Positions 2,148-51,060 of a DNA stretch of 57,153 nt are shown here, piece after piece. The notes under the pieces are model-generated. The model worked only from the letters and a program-made list of their open reading frames with translations. It made no database searches and was not told the origin of the DNA. Each line of letters starts with the position of its first letter. The stretch's first letter is position 1. The position numbers and the translations under genes were made by a program. Source of the DNA: Candidatus Omnitrophota bacterium (lineage in GTDB: Bacteria; Omnitrophota; Gorgyraeia; 2-01-FULL-45-10); the NCBI GenBank assembly GCA_016935115.1, contig JAFGRN010000002.1, positions 69,748-126,900 on the forward strand, written 5' to 3'.

Positions 2148-3887
2148 TCACTTTAGGATATCCACACACATGCAGGACTTAAGCTCTCTCCTCGATAATA
2201 GCGGCTCCTGATCCTCGACGGGCCTGTTAACGGATAGTTTAGGCAGTACCAGATTATCCTGCTTGATATCAACTTCGAGAAACATGGCCTGCGGGCCGTC
2301 AAACAGCTTTTTAAGAGCCCCTCCGGCCTCGCCGGGGCGGCAGATCTTCTTTGAAGGTATCCCGTACGCCGAGACGACATTGATAAAATCAGGACTGCTA
2401 TATCCCACGACCGTTGATTGGAACCGAGAATTGAAATACTGTTTCTGGAATTGCCGCACCATTCCGTAACAATGGTTGTTCAGCAGGACAATCTTTATAG
2501 GTAAATCATAATGCGCCACCGTCTGCAGCTCCTGTATATTGAGCTGGAATCCGCCGTCACCTGTTATGACCACGACCGGCCTGTCCGGATCCGCGAAAGA
2601 GGCGCCTATTGCCATGGAGAGGGCCGATCCCATGGCTCCCATGCCGCCCTGGGTTATGAATCGCTGTGAGGCGCGTATATTCAGATACTGCGCGGACCAC
2701 ATCTGGTTCTGCCCGACGTCTGCGCATATCACCGCATCGTCCGGTAGATACGCGGACAATCTCCGCATCAAGAATTCCGGCGTTATCCTGTTTCCGGACA
2801 AAGATCCGCCCGAAGAATACCTCCTCCTGTACTCCCCGACCCTGCTCACCCACGGCCTTATTCTCGTCCTGTCATAATCGCAGATGCTGTCGTTGAGCTT
2901 TATCAGGAATTCTCTTATATCGGAATGGACCGGGATATCGGAAGAGACCTTATGCCCCAGTTCATTTTTATCGATATCGACGTGCACGATCTTCGCGCCT
3001 CTCGCAAAAGTCTCGGGCCGTGTCCCCGTCTGCCTCGTATCGAGCCTGGTGCCGAGCGCCATGACCAGGTCAGCATTTGCCACCGCCAGGTTCGCGAACC
3101 TGTTGCCGTATGTGCCTATCATGCCGGCAAAGGCCGGATCTGTGTGGGGGAACGCGTCCAGGCCCATGAGCGAGGAGACCACCGGTATCCCCGTAGCGCG
3201 CACAAATCTTAGCAACTCTCCCGTCGCATGGGATAATCTAACGCCGCCTCCGGCCAATATCACCGGACGCCTGGAGGAGCCTATGAGTCCTTTTACCCTC
3301 TTTACCGCCTTATTAACACTATCGCCCGTCTCATGCCTGCCACGGAATGGCTTCAAGCGTAACCGGTCAACATTTGAACGTTGCACATTCATGGGTATGT
3401 CCACGAGAACCGGGCCCGGACGACCAGACCTGGCGGTGAATAGCGCCTTTTCAAGATCATACCTTATCGTTGCCGGATCCGTGACAAGCATGGCGCTCTT
3501 AACTATCGGCCTCACTATATTTACGATATCCGTCTCCTGAAAACCAACCTGCCGCACAGGCTTATCAAATTTGAACTCATAGGCATTCACCTGGCCCGTT
3601 ATAAAAAGACAGGGTATGGAATCAAAATAACAGCTCGCGATACCGGTTATCAGATTGGTCGCGCCCGGCCCGCTCGTTGCCATGGCCACTGCCACATTTT
3701 CACCGATCCTCGAGTAACCTTCCGCCGCAAAAGCAGCCGCCTGCTCATGGTGCATCGATACCACGGATATCCCTTTCCGCCCGTAAAGCGAATCCAGAAG
3801 ATGCGTGGTCGCGCCGCCGCAGACCTCGAAGACGGATCCTGCGCCGTTTGCGGCAAGGAACTCTATGACATAATCTGATAGCTTCAT
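2148..3887 (-). CDS. Thiamine-diphosphate-dependent enzyme, acetolactate-synthase-like (YerE-like in this context)
   Basis: HHEQAAAFAAEGY, ATSGPGATN, GRPGPVLVDIP and the ThDP motif GDGGFQLN...LLNN. Confidence 0.88.
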   Translation of the reverse strand: MKLSDYVIEFLAANGAGSVFEVCGGATTHLLDSLYGRKGISVVSMHHEQAAAFAAEGYSRIGENVAVAMATSGPGATNLITGIASCYFDSIPCLFITGQVNAYEFKFDKPVRQVGFQETDIVNIVRPIVKSAMLVTDPATIRYDLEKALFTARSGRPGPVLVDIPMNVQRSNVDRLRLKPFRGRHETGDSVNKAVKRVKGLIGSSRRPVILAGGGVRLSHATGELLRFVRATGIPVVSSLMGLDAFPHTDPAFAGMIGTYGNRFANLAVANADLVMALGTRLDTRQTGTRPETFARGAKIVHVDIDKNELGHKVSSDIPVHSDIREFLIKLNDSICDYDRTRIRPWVSRVGEYRRRYSSGGSLSGNRITPEFLMRRLSAYLPDDAVICADVGQNQMWSAQYLNIRASQRFITQGGMGAMGSALSMAIGASFADPDRPVVVITGDGGFQLNIQELQTVAHYDLPIKIVLLNNHCYGMVRQFQKQYFNSRFQSTVVGYSSPDFINVVSAYGIPSKKICRPGEAGGALKKLFDGPQAMFLEVDIKQDNLVLPKLSVNRPVEDQEPLLSRRELKSCMCVDILK

Positions 3888-26304: not shown

Positions 26305-28047
26305 TTAAAGCTTTCTCCTGTAGATATCTATACGCGGGCCTCTGATAACGCTCTTTGATCCCGCCAGGCTGATCGAACGTAGTGCATGGTAATCCCGATC
26401 CATAAAATGCGGAAAGAACGAGGTAAACTCCACCGTTGGAGCAAATGATCTTTCGAGCGCGTATCTTTTCGCAAGTGTCTTCTTCATCGCATTCCGGCTC
26501 TCATAGTATCCCTCTTCTATGAAATAACGCATCTCATAACTTACAAACGTATCGTCGTTATTGGACGTTGTAATGATAAATAACGGGTCATTCGAAAGTA
26601 TATCCGATTCTTTCAGCTTGTCGACTTTTACGACATCATACAAAGAACTCCCCGCGTATAGTTCGTCATAATATGCCATTTTTACCTTCTGCAGCGAACC
26701 ACTGCCGCCTATGGCGACGGCCCCGTCAAAATCCCTTTTAACGCTCTCCACATTGCCAGCCAGCTGAGGAGAACTTATGGCGTTCCCAAAGAGGCATCCC
26801 TCCTCGAGTACTGTTGATTCCTTTTCTATATTATCCTCTATCCATGATTTTGCGATCGTCCGCGTATCGGGACTTGCCACTACCTTGATCAATTTTATCG
26901 AATCTATGAATGATGGAAAAACTATTAACGCGGCCGCCAGGGTCGCAAAAAAAATTGATCTTCTGAAAAGTATTCCGGAAAGTAGTTCGTCGAGAAAACG
27001 CCCTGCCAGAATAAATACGAAAAAACTAAGCGGTATGATGTGATACGCAAAACCTGTAATATTCATGAAGATAAGATATTGCGATATCGGAAAAACAACG
27101 AGAAGCAAGTCCCATCTGGTTCGCCTGTAAAGAGCGTAGCCCATACCGCACAACGATAATATCTCCAGCGGAACCCCCCACCCGTTCCTCATATGATTGG
27201 TAAAATAATAAAGCCACCTGTGCTTGTTCGGATTGACCGTAATGTGCGCACCTCCTATCCTGACCACGGTATCCTGGTATACGGCCCCTATGTTAAAAAG
27301 CGCGGAAGGCACGCCGATGAAAAATCCCGCCATTACCATGGCCGAGCCAGCCGCGAGCATCCGGACCAGCGCAACAACCGATCGTAGCCGCTCATCCCTG
27401 TATTTAATAAATGCCGCGACAAAAAGGAACGCCACGCCGAAAACACAATGTAATTTACCCGCTACGGCAAGCCCGACGAGAAGGGACGCGGCATAATATA
27501 AGCTGCGGTCTCCGGTTTTCTGAATACTCAAAACCACACATAAAAAAGCGCATGCCAACAGGAAGGTAGCGGGCACATCGGCCAGCGCAAAAATTGACAT
27601 CTGAAAAGTCAATAAAGAGAATCCTGTAAATATCGCCGCTATCAGCGCGGCTCTTGCGTTGAAGATTTTCGCGGTAATCGCATAGGAAAGATATATAAGC
27701 GATGTACCGCACAGGATAGAAATCACCCTGCCCAATATAAAAAAGACCGAAGGATCACGCAGATAACCTACAAGAAATGATGCAGGCGAGGTAACAGCAC
27801 CCAACACCTTAAGAAGGATGAAGTATAATCCATAGATAATGCCCAGGACCAGCTGGTATAGGCCACCGTGAGAATATGAGAACGGCTTGAGATTTCCACC
27901 GGCCATGCGCAGGGCATCTTCAACGTAATTATTCTCGTCGTGCCAATAGGTATAGGGCAGGCTTGCCTGGACAGGATAGAGCCTCATCGCAAAGGCAAAT
28001 AAGATCACGGCCATTAATACCGGATACGTGGCCCTCATATTACTCAT
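26305..28047 (-). CDS. GT-C membrane glycosyltransferase (ArnT/PMT-like)
   Basis: HDE in the first loop, about 11 hydrophobic segments, GLAVAGK, C-terminal soluble domain. Start MSNMR at 28047 (track 28089). Confidence 0.8.
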   Translation of the reverse strand: MSNMRATYPVLMAVILFAFAMRLYPVQASLPYTYWHDENNYVEDALRMAGGNLKPFSYSHGGLYQLVLGIIYGLYFILLKVLGAVTSPASFLVGYLRDPSVFFILGRVISILCGTSLIYLSYAITAKIFNARAALIAAIFTGFSLLTFQMSIFALADVPATFLLACAFLCVVLSIQKTGDRSLYYAASLLVGLAVAGKLHCVFGVAFLFVAAFIKYRDERLRSVVALVRMLAAGSAMVMAGFFIGVPSALFNIGAVYQDTVVRIGGAHITVNPNKHRWLYYFTNHMRNGWGVPLEILSLCGMGYALYRRTRWDLLLVVFPISQYLIFMNITGFAYHIIPLSFFVFILAGRFLDELLSGILFRRSIFFATLAAALIVFPSFIDSIKLIKVVASPDTRTIAKSWIEDNIEKESTVLEEGCLFGNAISSPQLAGNVESVKRDFDGAVAIGGSGSLQKVKMAYYDELYAGSSLYDVVKVDKLKESDILSNDPLFIITTSNNDDTFVSYEMRYFIEEGYYESRNAMKKTLAKRYALERSFAPTVEFTSFFPHFMDRDYHALRSISLAGSKSVIRGPRIDIYRRKL

Positions 28048-29377
28048 GCTTTTCCCTTTTATTACGATCAAAAAAAGCCGGAGCGGCAAGGATACAATAC
28101 AGAGGTATCAGCGGTACCGCGTACCTGCCTATGGCGTCCAGTAAAGAGTACATGAGGTTTACATACAGTATTATGACTGCCAGGGCTATCCACCGATCCC
28201 AGATATATATGTTCTTTATCATCGCTATAAATACCAGCAGGATCAGTATGTAAGCGATCGATCTGCTCATGCCCTTCATAAGCGCAAGGACCAATTCCCC
28301 GTTTCGGGTCTTTGAAAAATATTTGGTGACGCTCTCTTCATTCAGAAGAGGAGTGTATGTAAAAGCTGTCATTTTTATTCCCTCTATGAAGGTATATCCC
28401 AGATACCTGAACGGATGTTCCGATATCTTCCGGAAGGCTTCTCCCGCCATCTTCTTGTCTATCTCTCCCGGCGGCATACCCTGCTTCGCGTACTCATCCT
28501 CCAGCGCCATTTCCCGCTCCAGGTCTTTAAAAAAGTACCTGTTCGATACGGTGATTATATCGGGAAAGAGTTTCTTCCCCAGATATTCGGAGAAGCTGCA
28601 CGTTACAGTGGCCATGAGCTCCCTCGGAGAATCGTCTATCTTCTCTGCCCGCGACCAGATGACCATGCCTCCCCGCGAGGCCATCGAAAATGTATTGAAG
28701 ACCATCTTATTTCTTATCGGCCAGACGGAAATAATTCCCATGTAGACAGCGATAAGCAGGACGCTATATACGACAAAACGCTTTATTTCCGCCTTTTTAA
28801 CAATGCGCGATATGAAAACCATGGCAAGTATGGCAAACGGCAGGAACAGTACTATGGTCTTCGTCAATGTCAATAATCCGAATACCGCGCCGCACACGGC
28901 AAAGCGCAGGGCGGTCTGGCGCTTCAACGCCAGCAGCAGTAATAACACGCTCAGGCATAATTCGAATGTAAACAGGGTCTCGCTGAGTATGTATGACGCC
29001 GTATTCGCCAGCGTCGGAAAGACGGCGACCATTATGCCCGACAGAAAAGCGGCATTTTCCGAAAAGATATGCCGCGCTATAAAATACGCCATTACAGCTG
29101 TCATGGCATGCAATAGAATCTGTACGAAAACCACCGGTATCGGGTTATGCCCAAATGCCCTGTATACGGCCGCCAGGAATACCGGGTAAGCCGGCTCCCG
29201 ATACATTGTGGGAAGATACGGGGCGCTCTCGCTCTGGGAAAAGCCGCGGCCGCAGGCCAGGTTATACCCGATCCTGTCATACTGCGTGGCGTCCGGACCC
29301 ATTGCCGGAGAACCGAACATGATAAATATTCCGGCCGTTAATATGCCCAGTACCGATATGATCAATATTTTACGCAT
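28040..29377 (-). CDS. GT-C membrane glycosyltransferase (ArnT/PMT-like)
   Basis: PDATQYD, REPAYP, SETLF, GLLTLTK, RYAVPLIP; multiple TM helices. Confidence 0.82.
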   Translation of the reverse strand: MRKILIISVLGILTAGIFIMFGSPAMGPDATQYDRIGYNLACGRGFSQSESAPYLPTMYREPAYPVFLAAVYRAFGHNPIPVVFVQILLHAMTAVMAYFIARHIFSENAAFLSGIMVAVFPTLANTASYILSETLFTFELCLSVLLLLLALKRQTALRFAVCGAVFGLLTLTKTIVLFLPFAILAMVFISRIVKKAEIKRFVVYSVLLIAVYMGIISVWPIRNKMVFNTFSMASRGGMVIWSRAEKIDDSPRELMATVTCSFSEYLGKKLFPDIITVSNRYFFKDLEREMALEDEYAKQGMPPGEIDKKMAGEAFRKISEHPFRYLGYTFIEGIKMTAFTYTPLLNEESVTKYFSKTRNGELVLALMKGMSRSIAYILILLVFIAMIKNIYIWDRWIALAVIILYVNLMYSLLDAIGRYAVPLIPLYCILAAPAFFDRNKREKHE

Positions 29378-45049: not shown

Positions 45050-46039
45050 TTAATTAAGTACCATGTCTATAATATATGTCTTTTTCTGCTGAATTTCATA
45101 ATAGGACCTTTTATCCATTTCGGCCAGGAGGCCTATTAAAATGGTTTGCGTGCCGAGTAATATTAACAGCATGGTCAATAACATAAGGGGGAGCAGATTT
45201 ATGCCCGGCAAACCTACTATATAACGTTCGTACAACGAAAACAGCCCGACCGCCGTTCCCAGCCCGATACTTGCTATGCCGAAACCTCCGAAGAAATGTA
45301 TCGGTTTTACAGAATAGTCGGACATGAACTTTATCACAAATAAATCTAAAATAACGCTCGGAACTCTTTTTATGCCATATTTGGATCTTCCTTTTCTTCT
45401 GGGATGGTGTTTTACGGATAATTCCGTAACCCTACCGCCTTCCATAGCGACAAGCGCAGGTATGAAACGATGCATTTCACCGTAGAGATGGATGGATTTT
45501 ATGAGTTTTGTTCTGTAGACTTTTAAAGTACAGCCATAATCATGCAGATGGACCTTTGAAAACCACGAAATCATCTTATTAGCGATATAAGACGGGATCT
45601 TTCTCATGATAAATGAATCTTTGCGATAACGTCGCCAGCCGCACACCAGGTCAAAACCCTCCTCCAGCTTCGCTGTCAAAGCCGGTATATCGCTGGCATC
45701 ATTCTGCATATCACCATCCATGGTCGCTAAAACATGCTTCGTGGCCGATTGTATTCCAGCCATCATGGCCACTGTCTGTCCGAAATTCTTGCTAAATTTT
45801 ATAACCCTCACCTTCTTATCATCACGGCTCAGTCTTTCCAGATACTCAAAACTGCCATCCGTACTGCCATCATCGACAAATATTATTTCGTACTCATCAT
45901 AAGATCTGTCCAGAACGTCTCTTATATGCCTGTAAAGCACATCTAGATTTTCTCTCTCGTTGAATATGGGTATCACCAGTGAAATATCCCTGGCGGGCAC
46001 GCTCTTGATTTCCCCGTTATCGCGTATATCAATAACCAT
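45050..46039 (-). CDS. GT2 glycosyltransferase, ArnC-like polyprenyl-phosphate glycosyltransferase
   Basis: SLVIPIFNE, VDDGSTD, KNFGQT, MDGDMQND, HDYGCTLK, YGEMHRFIP; two C-terminal TM helices. Confidence 0.9.
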   Translation of the reverse strand: MVIDIRDNGEIKSVPARDISLVIPIFNERENLDVLYRHIRDVLDRSYDEYEIIFVDDGSTDGSFEYLERLSRDDKKVRVIKFSKNFGQTVAMMAGIQSATKHVLATMDGDMQNDASDIPALTAKLEEGFDLVCGWRRYRKDSFIMRKIPSYIANKMISWFSKVHLHDYGCTLKVYRTKLIKSIHLYGEMHRFIPALVAMEGGRVTELSVKHHPRRKGRSKYGIKRVPSVILDLFVIKFMSDYSVKPIHFFGGFGIASIGLGTAVGLFSLYERYIVGLPGINLLPLMLLTMLLILLGTQTILIGLLAEMDKRSYYEIQQKKTYIIDMVLN

Positions 46040-46089: not shown

Positions 46090-47025
46090 CTACAACCTAA
46101 AATAATTCACTGTCTTCGACAGGCCTTGCCGCAGTGTCACTTTCGGTTTCCAACGAAGCATCTTCTTCGCCTTTGATATATCCGGACACCTGACCTTAGG
46201 ATCATCTATTGGCAGGGTTTTATGAACAATCTCGCTTCTTGAGTCAGCCAGTTTTATTATCAATCCCGCAAGTTCCAACAGAGACATTTCATCAGGATTG
46301 CCTATATTAACCGGTTCATGCTCTTTCGACATTATGAGCCTGTATATGCCATCGACAAGATCTGTCACGTAACAGAAACTCCTGCTCTGCCGGCCCGTCC
46401 CGTATATTGTAATGGGCCTGCCAGCCAGAGCCTGGCATATAAAATTAGGTATGGCGCGGCCGTCATTGCGGCGCATCCTGGGCCCGTAGGTATTGAATAT
46501 GCGAACGATCCTGGTATCGAGCCTGTGATAATGGCGGTATGCCATCGTCATGGCTTCGGCAAACCTCTTGGCTTCGTCATAGACTCCGCGCGGGCCTATG
46601 GGATTCACATTGCCCCAATAACTCTCCGGCTGCGGGTTAACCAGGGGATCGCCATAGACTTCGCTCGTCGAAGCCAGCAGGAATTTGGCCCTCTTTACTC
46701 TCGCCAATCCAAGGGCATTGTGCGTGCCAAGGGAGCCGACTTTGAGGGTCTGGATCGGATATTTCAGGTAATCCGCCGGGCTGGCGGGAGAGGCAAAGTG
46801 CAGGATGTAATCCACCCTGCCCTTGACGTCAATATAATCCGACACGTCATGCCTGATAAACTCGAAATCCCTGCTATTCAGGTGATGCCTGATATTCTCC
46901 AGCTTCCCCGTGATGAGATTGTCCATGCAGGCAACCCGGAAACCCTTCTCAAGGAATAGATCGCAGAGATGAGACCCTATAAAGCCCGCGCCGCCTGTTA
47001 TGAGAACTCTCTTCTTATGTTCCAT
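46090..47025 (-). CDS. UDP-glucuronic acid decarboxylase (UDP-xylose synthase)
   Basis: [57 protein letters not shown]. Confidence 0.93.
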
Positions 47026-47354
47026 TAATATATTCTATCGCCTTCTTTATCATATATTTCGATATTCAGCGATTCTAGTAACGGCCGCAGCTTTTCATTG
47101 TTATACACCTTCATAATGACGTCTCCCGAACCAATCTCGGTAATATTAAAATCACTGTAACTGCCATTATTATACTTCCTGAGCACAAAGTACTTAACTA
47201 CTGGCGGCTCCGGGTGGGGGACGGGAACCTGTATGCGCTCAATCCGCACCTTGTTCTGCATTCTTAAATATATGGTTCCCGCCTTGAATCCGATCCAGAA
47301 TACAATGAGATAAACACCTAACAGTATAAGCGTAATCTTAATTTTTTTAGCCAT
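47025..47354 (-). CDS. Hypothetical bitopic membrane protein
   Basis: 109 aa: one N-terminal TM helix, Pro-rich linker (VPVPHPEPP), small soluble domain; TAATG coupling to the downstream gene. Confidence 0.6.
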
Positions 47355-47950
47355 ATGCCCCCCACGTTATAAACTACCCATATCATAAACGAAACTATAA
47401 ACAACCGGAGAAAATCCCGGGACATTGTGATCGAGTATCCGAATTGAGTCGGCAAAAAGAGAGCCGACAAAAGAAACAGATTTGCTGCCAGGTCGCCAAA
47501 ATACGTTTTCGCGACCCTGAAAAGCATGTATACGCTCAATATGCTCAAGCACACATTTAGGATCCTAATCCATATGGTAGCGTATCCCAGCACAAGGTAT
47601 ATTACCCCTATCATATACACATGCACAATAGACTCGCCTGTGATGCGCGGCAGATTTCCCTGATGGGTCATAAACACGCTTAAGAATGCCGCCTGAACCT
47701 TCTTATCGGCGGGCACCAGATCCCAGGAAATAGAATCCTTCCCATATCCCTGAAGCAAAAGATCGATGTACCTGCCCTTCATCGAATAAAAAATACCGTC
47801 CGGCACCAGGGGGTCTTCACCGGTGACATTGACGTAGATATCGTATGCCGAAGCCATAATAAGCCTCAGCAGAAAGACTATGATTATGAGTTTTTTGTAA
47901 TCCAGCCCGCTAATCCGGCTGCGCCAATCAAAAGATATATCAGTTCGCAT
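47318..47950 (-). CDS. Membrane protein resembling the N-terminal half of a GT-C/Wzy-like protein
   Basis: PD..Y loop followed by IY...G...IRILN..LS..S.Y..F..A...F and S...RD; aligns by eye with residues of about 25-150 of the 28040..29377 protein. Confidence 0.65.
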   Translation of the reverse strand: MRTDISFDWRSRISGLDYKKLIIIVFLLRLIMASAYDIYVNVTGEDPLVPDGIFYSMKGRYIDLLLQGYGKDSISWDLVPADKKVQAAFLSVFMTHQGNLPRITGESIVHVYMIGVIYLVLGYATIWIRILNVCLSILSVYMLFRVAKTYFGDLAANLFLLSALFLPTQFGYSITMSRDFLRLFIVSFMIWVVYNVGGIWLKKLRLRLYC

Positions 47951-48435
47951 GGCATCCCGTGTCTTATGAGCGCTTCGACCACTGAATCATATATACCGAT
48001 CTGAAATGAAATCATGATGAAAATAATCAATAAAAACCAGGTCCTCCCGAAATACCGGACGGCCCCGTACAGAAAAAATGGAAATGCCACCAGGTTCAAA
48101 ACAACCTGCGGGGTGAACGGGCTTATAAACACAGGCTGGAACAGGATATTAAACACGCTGTTAGCCAGGATCTGCGCCAGCATCGCAAGGGGTATCGGTT
48201 CCATCAGCAGTTCCTTCAAATAACTGCCTGTCGGAACTAAAAAATAGTGCTTGGCTGTTACCTCGAGATTTGAAATATGGTGGAGAAAGCGCACCTGAAT
48301 ACCCGCCATGGTTCTGTCTGAAATCACCTCGAGGGCGCGGGTAACCATACCGGAGGATAACGAAAACCCTATGAATAACACTACCAGCGCAATCAAAATA
48401 CAGCTAAATGCGTTTCTAACAAATACCTGCTTCAT
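47884..48435 (-). CDS. Membrane protein resembling the C-terminal half of a GT-C/Wzy-like protein
   Basis: Ends ...YDSVVEALIRHGMPCELIYLLIGAAGL, comparable to SLLDAIGRYAVPLIPLYCILAA of 28040..29377. Start MKQVF at 48435 with GGAG (track 48474). Confidence 0.62.
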   Translation of the reverse strand: MKQVFVRNAFSCILIALVVLFIGFSLSSGMVTRALEVISDRTMAGIQVRFLHHISNLEVTAKHYFLVPTGSYLKELLMEPIPLAMLAQILANSVFNILFQPVFISPFTPQVVLNLVAFPFFLYGAVRYFGRTWFLLIIFIMISFQIGIYDSVVEALIRHGMPCELIYLLIGAAGLAGWITKNS

Positions 48436-48470: not shown

Positions 48471-50063
48471 TCACAGACGAACGTACTCCAGCTTCACCAG
48501 GCCGACAATGATCTTTTTAAATTTAACATGATCGAATAACTTATAATATAAAGCCCTGATCACTTTATACATCCTCGAAAGATCGGAGGAGCCCGGCTTT
48601 ATCATGACTTTGAATTCCGGATCTCTTGGCCTGTAGCCGCTGATATTGTACTCGGGGAGTTCTATAAAACGCTTATTATCGATAAAGTACCTGCTCCAGT
48701 CCAGCTTGTTATACATATCCAGGCTCATTCCGAAACGCGTCTCATCGTTAAATGCAAGCTTCATCAGCCCCGTATATTCATAGAACCTGTAAAACCTTCC
48801 CATGGCATTCATATCGGATGCCTGATCGTCGAATATGAAGGTGGTATTATTTTTCATGACGCTGCTGGCCCTGAAGTTCTCGACCAGAGACAGCTGTTTA
48901 AACCAGTCCTTTTGATAGTCCACATAGGCCTTAAAATTCACCGAAATGAATAACGCTATCATCAGCGAATATAAAAAAAGGCGAGCATGAGAACCCCATC
49001 TCAACCTATTGCAGAAAAGCCTCATCCCATAATATAGAGCCAGGCTGAATCCCAGAGGCAGTAAGAGCTGATTACGGCTATCCCAATCGATGAACCTCGG
49101 TATATGATCAACCGCAAGATACGGAAATGCCGCGGCAAAGAACAGTATGAGGCCCAGAAAAAATAATTTTATATCACTTTTCCCGCTCAGCGCTGCCGCA
49201 ATTACCGTTTTTGACAAGAACAGAAATACGGCAAAACCAAAGATGATACACAGGCACGCGTTTGAGAGAAACATGTTGAAAGCGTTGTTAATTACGGCGA
49301 CAAAGGAGTCATTGAAAGCCTGTATCGATCTTATCGGCGCGGATAAGACGGAACTCAAAGCAATATTGTTATGCCAGGCATAGAAGTCGCATGGCTTTAA
49401 AAAAACGTTTTTCGCGATCCAAAAAGCCGGCGCTATCACCAGAAAATCCGTGTATCTCAACATACCGACAATAAATTCTCCCGGCGTCCCGATGCGGCCT
49501 CTTTCTTTATACAGAATGAAAAGAATAATCGATACCATATAGAGAACAAGCAGGGAATTGGTGCAAAATGAAATGATAAATATGAGAAGGGTGGCCAGCC
49601 TGAGCATGATACCGCGAGTCTTAAAATACCTGGAAAATAACATAAGGCCCAGGAAGAATGCGAAGTAACTTATCGCGTACGTAAAGGCGCATAAAGCTAT
49701 CCGGGCAAAATTTACAGGAAGGATCGCGAATAATAGAACCACGGACAGTCTGGAGCCATCATCCATCTCTTTTATCTCTTTTAGCGTTTTATTCAGGAAC
49801 AAAGCTGACAGAAGAAATAAAAAAAATACTGCCAGCCTGGGTATAATCAGGGAATCAAAGGAAAAAATGGAGGAGAAGATGTATCCATCCCATGGGTTAC
49901 CATATGACTTCGTCATGTTCATTATGGCCGGCTTCGCCACATGGTAGAAGCACCACCCGTCGATATACACACCGTCGTTGAAGAGCATGATCCCGTAGGC
50001 AAGGGAATAAAAAAGGGATATTATGAAATTTTCGCTCTTGCAGATATATTTCAGGATCTTCAT
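48471..50063 (-). CDS. Multi-pass membrane protein, putative GT-C glycosyltransferase (GtrII-like)
   Basis: YIDGW acidic first loop, about 11 TM helices, SRNQLL motif, C-terminal periplasmic domain. Confidence 0.6.
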   Translation of the reverse strand: MKILKYICKSENFIISLFYSLAYGIMLFNDGVYIDGWCFYHVAKPAIMNMTKSYGNPWDGYIFSSIFSFDSLIIPRLAVFFLFLLSALFLNKTLKEIKEMDDGSRLSVVLLFAILPVNFARIALCAFTYAISYFAFFLGLMLFSRYFKTRGIMLRLATLLIFIISFCTNSLLVLYMVSIILFILYKERGRIGTPGEFIVGMLRYTDFLVIAPAFWIAKNVFLKPCDFYAWHNNIALSSVLSAPIRSIQAFNDSFVAVINNAFNMFLSNACLCIIFGFAVFLFLSKTVIAAALSGKSDIKLFFLGLILFFAAAFPYLAVDHIPRFIDWDSRNQLLLPLGFSLALYYGMRLFCNRLRWGSHARLFLYSLMIALFISVNFKAYVDYQKDWFKQLSLVENFRASSVMKNNTTFIFDDQASDMNAMGRFYRFYEYTGLMKLAFNDETRFGMSLDMYNKLDWSRYFIDNKRFIELPEYNISGYRPRDPEFKVMIKPGSSDLSRMYKVIRALYYKLFDHVKFKKIIVGLVKLEYVRL

Positions 50064-50070
50064 GGCAATC

Positions 50071-51060
50071 CTATTTCTTATTCACCCGGAACCACTCAAC
50101 CGTGCGCTCGAGCCCTTCCCTGAACCCTGTGACTTTACCTATCTTAAGGAGCCGCTTCATCTTCGATATATCGGCGCGCGTCTTACGCACGTCTCCGCTT
50201 CTCTTCGGAGCGAATTTTGCTTCTATATCAGTACCGAGAATCCTATTGAGCTCATTGACTATGCCTATGATGGGTGTCGTCGCGCCGCATGCGATATTAA
50301 AGACCTCTCCCGATATGCCGGGCGTTACGCAGGCCCTCAGGTTTGCCTCAACGACGTTGCCCACGTATGTAAAGTCCCTCGACTGCTTCCCGTCCCATTC
50401 GACAACCGGCCGCTGGCCCTTGGCCATGGTAAAGAGAAACGCCGGGATCACGGCAGAATATTTCGAATCCGGATTCTGTCTCGGGCCGAAGACATTGAAA
50501 TACCTGAGCGAAACTGTTTCAAGGCCGAATGTCCTGGCAAATACGATACAGTAGTGCTCCGCGGCTAATTTCGCCACCCCGTAAGGAGATATCGGCGAAG
50601 GCGTATCCGTCTCTTTCTGCGGGAAGTGCTTTGCGTCACCGTATGCCGAACTCGACGATGCATATACCACCCTTTTTACCTTATGGTCGCGCGAGGCGGC
50701 CAGAAGATTCAGCGTGCCGCGGACGTTTATATCATTGGTGGTGAAAGGGTCGTCGACCGATTTCGGAACCGAACGGAGAGCCGCCTGATGGATCACATAA
50801 TCCACGCCCTTAAGGGCCTTTTCGAGGTCCTTCCTGTCGCGTATATCACCCTTAATAAGCCTGATATGCTTAAGAAATGGTTCCAGGTTCTCCATCTTGC
50901 CGGTGAGAAAATTGTCGAGGACTGTAATTCCGTCGACTTTAGGGACAGTCCCCACCTTGTGAAAACTACCGTCTGGGGACAGTCCCTTCAATCGGACAAG
51001 CTCCTCTACTATATTCGAACCTATGAAACCCGCGCCCCCGGTAACGAGATATTTAGCCAT
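50071..51060 (-). CDS. NAD-dependent epimerase (WbpP-like UDP-GlcNAc(A) 4-epimerase) carrying a short in-frame insertion
   Basis: [54 protein letters not shown]. Confidence 0.9.
   Translation of the reverse strand: MAKYLVTGGAGFIGSNIVEELVRLKGLSPDGSFHKVGTVPKVDGITVLDNFLTGKMENLEPFLKHIRLIKGDIRDRKDLEKALKGVDYVIHQAALRSVPKSVDDPFTTNDINVRGTLNLLAASRDHKVKRVVYASSSSAYGDAKHFPQKETDTPSPISPYGVAKLAAEHYCIVFARTFGLETVSLRYFNVFGPRQNPDSKYSAVIPAFLFTMAKGQRPVVEWDGKQSRDFTYVGNVVEANLRACVTPGISGEVFNIACGATTPIIGIVNELNRILGTDIEAKFAPKRSGDVRKTRADISKMKRLLKIGKVTGFREGLERTVEWFRVNKK
50941..50987. repeat. Palindromic element of two GGGACWGTCCC units, inside a CDS
   Basis: AGGGACAGTCCCCA (50941-50954) and TGGGGACAGTCCCT (50974-50987) form a 14-bp inverted repeat with one mismatch and a 19-nt spacer; each arm is itself palindromic. 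Confidence 0.8.

Follow-up and report, generated by a model that had tools for sequence, protein, structure and literature searches.

The window, by which we mean the whole 57,153-nucleotide (nt) stretch of contig JAFGRN010000002.1 (Candidatus Omnitrophota bacterium) analysed here, carries on its minus strand a locus that probably encodes a naturally split, multi-subunit GT-C glycosyltransferase resembling the PMT_2/ArnT-like enzymes. The locus consists of three overlapping genes, which we call C-like, N-like and small, in the order of their transcription (Table 1). By profile comparison, the N-like and C-like proteins are homologous to the N-terminal and the C-terminal portion, respectively, of a single family of unsplit GT-C proteins, and it is the C-terminal portion that is encoded first. 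The small gene accompanies the other two in every genome of the order that has them. We infer that the chains assemble physically.

Table 1. Split glycosyltransferase genes, their overlaps and the neighbouring genes in the window (ORF, open reading frame; aa, amino acids; SDR, short-chain dehydrogenase/reductase)
Feature	Position	Strand	Details
C-like subunit gene	47884..48435	minus	183 aa; ORF; ATG start at 48435
N-like subunit gene	47318..47950	minus	210 aa; ORF
Small gene	47025..47354	minus	109 aa; subunit candidate; ORF
C-like/N-like dual-coding overlap	47884..47950	minus	67 nt; N-like in the -1 frame relative to C-like
N-like/small overlap	47318..47354	minus	37 nt; dual-coding; G6 and A7 homopolymer runs
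A_AAA_AAC heptamer	47890..47896	minus	C-like frame, two codons before the C-like stop; resembles a -1 slippery site
SDR, UDP-glucuronate decarboxylase/ArnA C-terminal type	46090..47025	minus	immediately downstream of the module; synteny conserved in relatives
NAD-dependent sugar 4-epimerase-type SDR	50071..51060	minus	best match TviC-like; upstream of the module
GT2 polyprenyl-phosphate glycosyltransferase, ArnC/GtrB type	45050..46039	minus	two genes downstream of the module; PF00535

The N-like protein of the window matches PF13231 (PMT_2) with an E-value (E) of 6.4e-4, its residues 108-195 aligning with profile positions 4-91 of 160. The same profile matches 25 of the 29 members of the N-like family (best E 3.4e-7) and all 15 of the unsplit homologues, which are proteins of 420-485 aa from sister genera. 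Neither the C-like protein nor the small protein belongs to a Pfam or NCBIfam family. The N-termini of the unsplit proteins resemble N-like, and their C-termini (...E-A-L-V-R-H-R...) resemble that of C-like (...E-A-L-I-R-H-G-M...).

These likenesses were put on a firmer footing by profile-profile comparison with hhalign, in which alignments of C-like (A1, 21 sequences), N-like (A2, 29 sequences) and the unsplit family (A3, 15 sequences) were used and a 426-aa unsplit protein, P0090, served as the reference. The N-like alignment matched P0090 residues 11-201 (probability 99.8%, E 2.3e-28), and the C-like alignment matched residues 241-414 over 159 columns (probability 96.4%, E 1.1e-9). For C-like, the real alignment scored 71.6, against 12.8 for the reversed alignment (E 0.61) and at most 22.6 for 20 column shuffles (E 0.029). 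Since these controls score so low, composition does not explain the match. Between C-like and N-like themselves there is no similarity.

Several claims of an earlier reading made from the letters alone (the sequence-only reading) bear on these results. It had described two ORFs with a 67-nt overlap, and both are present on the minus strand. It had also proposed that they encode a C-half followed by an N-half, an order that the hhalign matches to the two ends of P0090 bear out. Its argument that a simple frameshifted pseudogene could not account for the locus holds as well: the halves match opposite ends of an unsplit GT-C, with the C-part encoded first. The particular comparison on which it relied, with a 445-aa GT-C at 28040, did not survive, since hhalign picks out the very segments that it had named but gives them non-significant E-values (C motif, 0.72; N block, 0.014). 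Nor did its Wzy-like or polymerase label find support; the only family match is PMT_2, PF13231, and no Pfam or NCBIfam match to the Wzy_C/O-antigen ligase profiles was obtained for N-like or C-like at E up to 1. The 445-aa gene is one of two unsplit PMT_2-type GT-C genes (594 and 445 aa) that lie back to back, with a 50-nt overlap, at 26305-29377 on the minus strand of the window; the split family is no more than a remote relative of either.

The two proteins have kept features of the corresponding parts of the unsplit enzyme. N-like contains the first transmembrane helix (TM1), a first extracytoplasmic loop and about four further hydrophobic helices. Acidic residues in the loop after TM1 are a GT-C feature and are present in N-like: D37 (in Y-D, at the end of TM1) and the pair P50-D51 are invariant in the 29 sequences, and in the alignment with the unsplit consensus this P-D falls on the conserved P-D-G-E motif. 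The counterparts of C-like in the unsplit relatives are TM8-TM11, the long loop and the C-terminal E-x-L-x-R-H motif, and C-like keeps residues that are invariant in the C-terminal part of those relatives (the E..L.RH, HH and P/Q motifs). The small protein has a basic N-terminus, a single TM helix, a G-F-K/R-x-G motif and a domain of about 75 aa, which would lie outside the cytoplasm; its alignment has 11 members and 10 invariant positions. Thus the hydrophobic helices are distributed over three chains, about five in N-like, about four in C-like and one in the small protein, in place of the single polypeptide of 7-13 TM helices, with a conserved and a variable module, by which GT-C enzymes are recognised.

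The start of the C-like gene is probably the ATG listed in Table 1. Homologues align from this ATG, and a GGAG lies 12-15 nt upstream of it. An alternative in-frame GTG is found at 48474 and would give a protein of 196 aa.

The three genes strictly co-occur. C-like, N-like and small are each found in exactly the same 10 of the 44 species genomes of the order, which belong to 8 genera. In a sample of the phylum, C-like is present in 5 of 401 genomes, all in the window's own bacterial family, and source names place the group in the Omnitrophota. Among 1.84e9 representative proteins, the C-like homologues form about 24 clusters, all of 243 aa or less; the N-like homologues are all of 212 aa or less. 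The cluster representatives (21 for C-like, 29 for N-like) are 39-66% identical to the window proteins. All the sequences found in either family are intact, and each family has 26-27 invariant positions (27 in C-like), many of them polar.

The gene order C-like, N-like, small holds in 9 of the 10 carrier genomes, that is, in the window and 8 other species genomes. Five further metagenome loci (L024-L028), representing three distinct contigs, have the same layout as the window. The sequence-only reading had pointed to other genomes as a place to look for the same order; because order, overlap and frame recur in these 8 genomes and three contigs, the arrangement is not an assembly artefact.

It could still be supposed that the ORFs are decaying pseudogene remnants of one or two GT-C genes, or the product of misassembly, given that the genes are only partial when set beside the unsplit family and that homopolymer runs occur at the N-like/small junction of the window. 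Against this stand intact ORFs with the same boundaries in 10 species genomes of 8 genera and in dozens of metagenome clusters, the invariant positions of each family, and the reproduction of the arrangement in independent assemblies. Pseudogene decay and assembly error are therefore excluded by intact, conserved ORFs, and we give this explanation a negligible probability. As to the homopolymer-rich junction, several metagenome homologues have a similarly extended N-like tail (..W.KKL+.+F/YCC), so the 37-nt overlap is not peculiar to the window assembly.

The overlap between C-like and N-like is itself conserved. It measures 64-73 nt, with N-like in the -1 frame, in the 7 genomes in which it was measured exactly, and the coordinates in two others (G014 and G028) agree. 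In the window, the last 21 sense codons of C-like, together with its stop, double as the opening 22 codons of N-like, which are read in the -1 frame. The ATG-CGA of N-like lies inside the invariant Cys-Glu codons of C-like (..CA TGC GA.), and it does so at every junction of the relatives. In most genomes an AGGA or GGGA is found 6-9 nt upstream of the N-like ATG, encoded by the R-H-R/G-M codons of C-like. The N-like/small overlap is 8-40 nt in the relatives. It is probable, then, that the three genes are made by translational coupling. Each start codon falls within the 3' end of the preceding gene, an arrangement that would allow coupled translation from one mRNA.

The same overlaps have consequences for annotation. 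Among the five metagenome loci, C-like was left uncalled by gene callers in three (L026, L027 and L028), and N-like was truncated by 29 codons, into TM1, in the other two (L024 and L025); both genes are intact in all five (tblastn; ~2450-3600). The dropped or truncated calls are due to the 64-73 nt overlap. Because gene callers drop C-like or truncate N-like, the family is largely invisible or mis-annotated in databases.

The position of the heptamer A_AAA_AAC raises the question of whether the two halves are joined in translation. The heptamer is a canonical slippery sequence, it lies just before the C-like stop, N-like is in the -1 frame, and this frame relation is conserved. A programmed -1 frameshift at this site would fuse C-like to N-like and give a circularly permuted GT-C of about 390 aa, the predicted product reading ...WITK-KLIII... 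across the slip (hyphen). The relatives speak against such a fusion. In all seven of those whose junctions were read the heptamer is missing, its place being taken by ATA AAA AGC, ACA AGA AGG, ACA GAA AGA and similar sequences. The N-like residues M1-R2 are invariant in the 29 sequences, and L16, D17, K19 and K20, which are encoded upstream of the heptamer, are conserved. One genome (G023, described below) has an N-like gene with a stop codon upstream and no C-like gene before it. Among the 1.84e9 representatives, no fused or permuted protein was found, the longest C-like match being 243 aa. Finally, the frames of C-like and N-like differ in all the genomes, so that a permuted chain encoded in a single frame is not what these genomes carry. 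We consider a programmed frameshift very improbable, and the heptamer in the window is probably fortuitous.

Since the heptamer is not conserved, N-like begins with Met-Arg, the order differs in G023 and no fused protein exists among the representatives, the products are separate polypeptides. The sequence-only reading had offered a choice between a heterodimer and a GT-C permuted by a frameshift. Its separate subunits fit what we find; its permuted chain, for which there is neither a conserved heptamer nor a fusion, does not, and the permuted fusion that it had suggested looking for in other genomes was not found among the representatives.

The exceptional genome, G023 (L015, G023:C9, 569-2323), has its genes unlinked, in the order N-like, small, C-like, small'. 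Its two small copies are 54% identical to each other and at most 46% identical to the others, and they are mutual closest relatives in the tree (97/97). Because these copies pair in the tree, the different order in G023 came with a lineage-specific duplication. Function does not depend on the gene order, as this variant shows. In G023 the family consensus is no longer followed at the N-terminus of N-like (MQYDLSLNIF..) or at the C-terminus of C-like (..AGMLRWFERYGIR). Such terminal drift is as expected once the genes are freed from dual coding.

How might the split have arisen? In the tree of the N-module, the 29 split sequences form one clade (100/100), which adjoins an unsplit clade of the same bacterial family, the sister relation being supported at 85/72. 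Because the split clade is single and the unsplit GT-C is universal elsewhere, a single fission is the parsimonious account. Thus the locus would derive from a single split of an enzyme, about 430 aa long, whose unsplit form is still found in sister genera. The simplest explanation of the C-first order would be a tandem duplication of the unsplit gene, after which copy 1 lost its 5' part and copy 2 its 3' part, giving an unfused form of 'permutation by duplication'. It is tempting to propose this route because the C-end abuts the N-start as the ends of tandem copies would. No relics of the lost gene parts remain at the locus. A 530-aa protein encoded between the epimerase gene and C-like was considered as a relic N-half and rejected, as it shows no hhalign similarity to the unsplit family. 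In one genome of a neighbouring family (G028), a split module (C97:3222-3731) is found together with an unsplit 485-aa relative (C51:2659-4078). Split and unsplit forms can therefore coexist.

The two halves do not add up to the whole. In P0090, PMT_2 extends over residues 105-257 (profile positions 6-156), and N-like ends at position 91 of 160; therefore the break is inside the conserved core. The segment of P0090 that is matched by neither half, residues ~203-240, contains two hydrophobic helices (TM6-7) and, between them, an Arg that is invariant in A3, as judged by hydropathy and hhalign. Because what has been removed is a hairpin, N-like would be expected to end on the side of the membrane on which C-like begins; the basic character of both these ends suggests that this is the cytoplasmic side. 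The loss of TM6-7 and the third, co-occurring gene are new findings that the sequence-only reading did not contain.

The small protein may substitute for the TM6-TM7 hairpin. Its K/R-rich start, TM helix and G-F-K/R-x-G motif resemble, by eye only, TM6 and the invariant Arg of the unsplit enzyme. In genomes that carry the unsplit form (G016, G019 and G022), the small companion gene is not detectable anywhere.

Several of our own observations weigh against a reassembled GT-C and have to be set beside the evidence given above. About 40 residues of the unsplit enzyme, comprising TM6-7 and the family-invariant Arg, are in neither half; since TM6-7 are missing, the assembled enzyme, if there is one, is not a simple cut-and-reassembled copy. 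When the small protein was tried as the missing TM6, there was no hhalign signal, and the protein has no Pfam family. The PF13231 match of the window N-like reaches 20.4 bits, below the Pfam gathering score of 26.1. A plain HMMER profile of C-like reached no full-length GT-C among the 1.84e9 representatives, its matches all being stand-alone proteins of about 185 aa, and it is for this reason that profile-profile comparison was needed; the link of C-like to GT-C thus comes from hhalign and the colinearity of the motifs. No relevant match among solved structures was obtained with HMMER profiles built from the unsplit family or from N-like. The AlphaFold2 model of the isolated N-like chain is all-helical, with a mean predicted local distance difference test score (pLDDT) of 74.6, and a Foldseek comparison of it with the PDB gave no match with E<1; a lone half of a membrane core is not recognisable. 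The C-like model, also made alone, is too poor for a fold comparison (pLDDT 57.6). As for origin, the rooting of the gene tree does not settle the ancestral gene order, and the gene trees place G023 neither as basal nor as derived.

With these points in mind, one could argue that the GT-C-derived halves no longer cooperate, N-like (perhaps with the small protein) having become a minimal transferase or a lipid-sugar binder and C-like having taken on another role. The absence of TM6-7 and of the Arg that is invariant in the unsplit family would fit, as would the divergence of C-like from that family, which is greater than that of N-like (E 1e-9 against 2e-28). Halves that had parted company would not be expected to show the co-occurrence of all three genes in the same genomes, nor overlapping starts, which imply coupled, matched expression; and C-like retains the C-terminal residues that are invariant in the unsplit family. 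We regard such a loss of cooperation as unlikely.

The split, multi-subunit GT-C therefore remains our preferred reading, and the enzyme that we envisage is as follows. The N-like chain would contribute TM1, the Asp-bearing first extracytoplasmic loop and the next four or so helices, and the C-like chain would supply what corresponds to TM8-TM11, together with the long loop and the E-x-L-x-R-H motif. The 109-aa single-pass protein would be an obligate companion. The three chains would assemble in the membrane into one enzyme. A more specific version of this proposal is that the enzyme is a three-chain GT-C in which the catalytic N module and the C module fold as separate chains and a newly recruited single-pass subunit replaces TM6-7, and that the C-first order is an arrested 'permutation by duplication', possibly retained because assembly benefits when the C module is inserted first. 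We put this version forward tentatively, as one that has somewhat less than an even chance of being correct.

The neighbouring genes give some indication of what the enzyme does. The SDR gene immediately downstream matches the ArnA C-terminal domain (1.3e-31) and UDP-4-keto-pentose/UDP-xylose synthase (8.7e-30), all below the curated cut-offs. The GT2 gene beyond it matches the ArnC model with E 7.5e-52 and 176 bits, below the cut-off of 529 bits. In the relatives, an epimerase-type SDR gene is directly upstream of C-like, a UDP-glucose 6-dehydrogenase gene is found further upstream and a DegT aminotransferase gene further downstream. No formyltransferase or deformylase gene was seen next to the module. 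In the window, a gene for a 530-aa multi-span membrane protein (48471-50063, minus strand) intervenes between the epimerase gene and C-like. This protein has a soluble-looking C-terminal region of about 130 aa and no Pfam or NCBIfam match, and the TGA stop of its gene overlaps the alternative GTG start of C-like (GTGA). The window differs in this from three of the relatives (G002, G009 and G011), in which the epimerase gene is followed directly by C-like.

The ArnC-like GT2 likely makes a lipid-linked sugar donor. By analogy with characterised systems, the split enzyme probably moves a UDP-glucuronate-derived sugar from polyprenyl-phosphate to an extracytoplasmic acceptor, either a surface glycan or lipid. 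The sugar would be loaded onto its polyprenyl-phosphate carrier by the ArnC-like GT2 and then transferred to the acceptor, and it is probably a UDP-glucuronate-derived pentose, a 4-aminopentose or a uronic acid. In ArnT (GT83)/ArnC and Gtr-type systems, as here, a transferase of the PF13231/PF02366 type is found near an ArnC/GtrB-type GT2 and UDP-glucuronate enzymes. The UDP-glucuronate enzymes in common with Arn systems are Ugd, an ArnA-like SDR and a DegT/ArnB-like aminotransferase. Unlike ArnT, the enzyme proposed here would be made of two or three chains, and it has no C-terminal periplasmic domain. No significant sequence match was found between the split module and ArnT or any other solved GT-C. 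Three-component periplasmic glycosylation of the Gtr type offers an analogue for the use of a lipid-phosphate sugar donor and for transfer outside the cytoplasm (PMC11127046). Of the features of such systems, a GT2 synthase candidate is present in the locus, and the GT-C is present in split form.

The closest relatives of the split module are the uncharacterised, unsplit P0090-family proteins, 420-467 aa long, of sister Omnitrophota genera. They belong to the same bacterial family, are homologous over both modules and share the P-D-G/S-x-x-Y-S loop after TM1, the H-H / Y-x-L-P loop and the C-terminal E-x-L-x-R-H. They differ in being single polypeptides, with the modules in N-to-C order and with TM6-7 present. 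Their gene neighbours differ too, being a large membrane protein or a 404-aa ORF that looks GT4-like.

Naturally split glycosyltransferases are known in the GT-B class, in which the two halves of Alg13/Alg14 and of bacterial EpsE/EpsF must assemble. Those enzymes consist of soluble Rossmann domains and are split between domains, whereas here the break is in the membrane core of a GT-C and the order is reversed. PIG-X, which works with PIG-M, is a single-pass accessory subunit of a eukaryotic GT-C. The small protein resembles it in layout, having one TM helix and an extracytoplasmic domain, and in being tied to a GT-C; the PIG-M-type catalytic subunit, unlike the one proposed here, is not itself split. 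Permutation by duplication, that is, tandem duplication followed by terminal truncations, has been proposed for permuted DNA methyltransferases and for swaposins. In the window, too, the C-part abuts the N-part, but the pieces are unfused, unlike the permuted single chains. The duplicated small gene of G023 indicates that duplications do reshuffle this module, as they do in permutation by duplication. We found no description of a GT-C that is split inside its membrane core, or that has swapped gene order, in the full-text literature, the coverage of which is incomplete.

Accounts of GT-C enzymes (OST/PglB, PMTs, ArnT, Emb/Aft, and the ALG and PIG transferases) present them as single chains that span the membrane many times, a conserved N-terminal module being followed by a variable C-terminal one. 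If our interpretation is correct, the Omnitrophota locus would be a natural test of this modular model, since the modules are separate and yet co-inherited across at least 8 genera. It would mark where the GT-C membrane core can be cut and, in the more specific three-chain version, would be the first evidence that this core tolerates natural chain breaks and re-ordering. It would also represent an unfused intermediate toward circular permutation in a membrane protein. With chains of only about 210, 183 and 109 aa, it would provide a small system for structural study of how the modules assemble.

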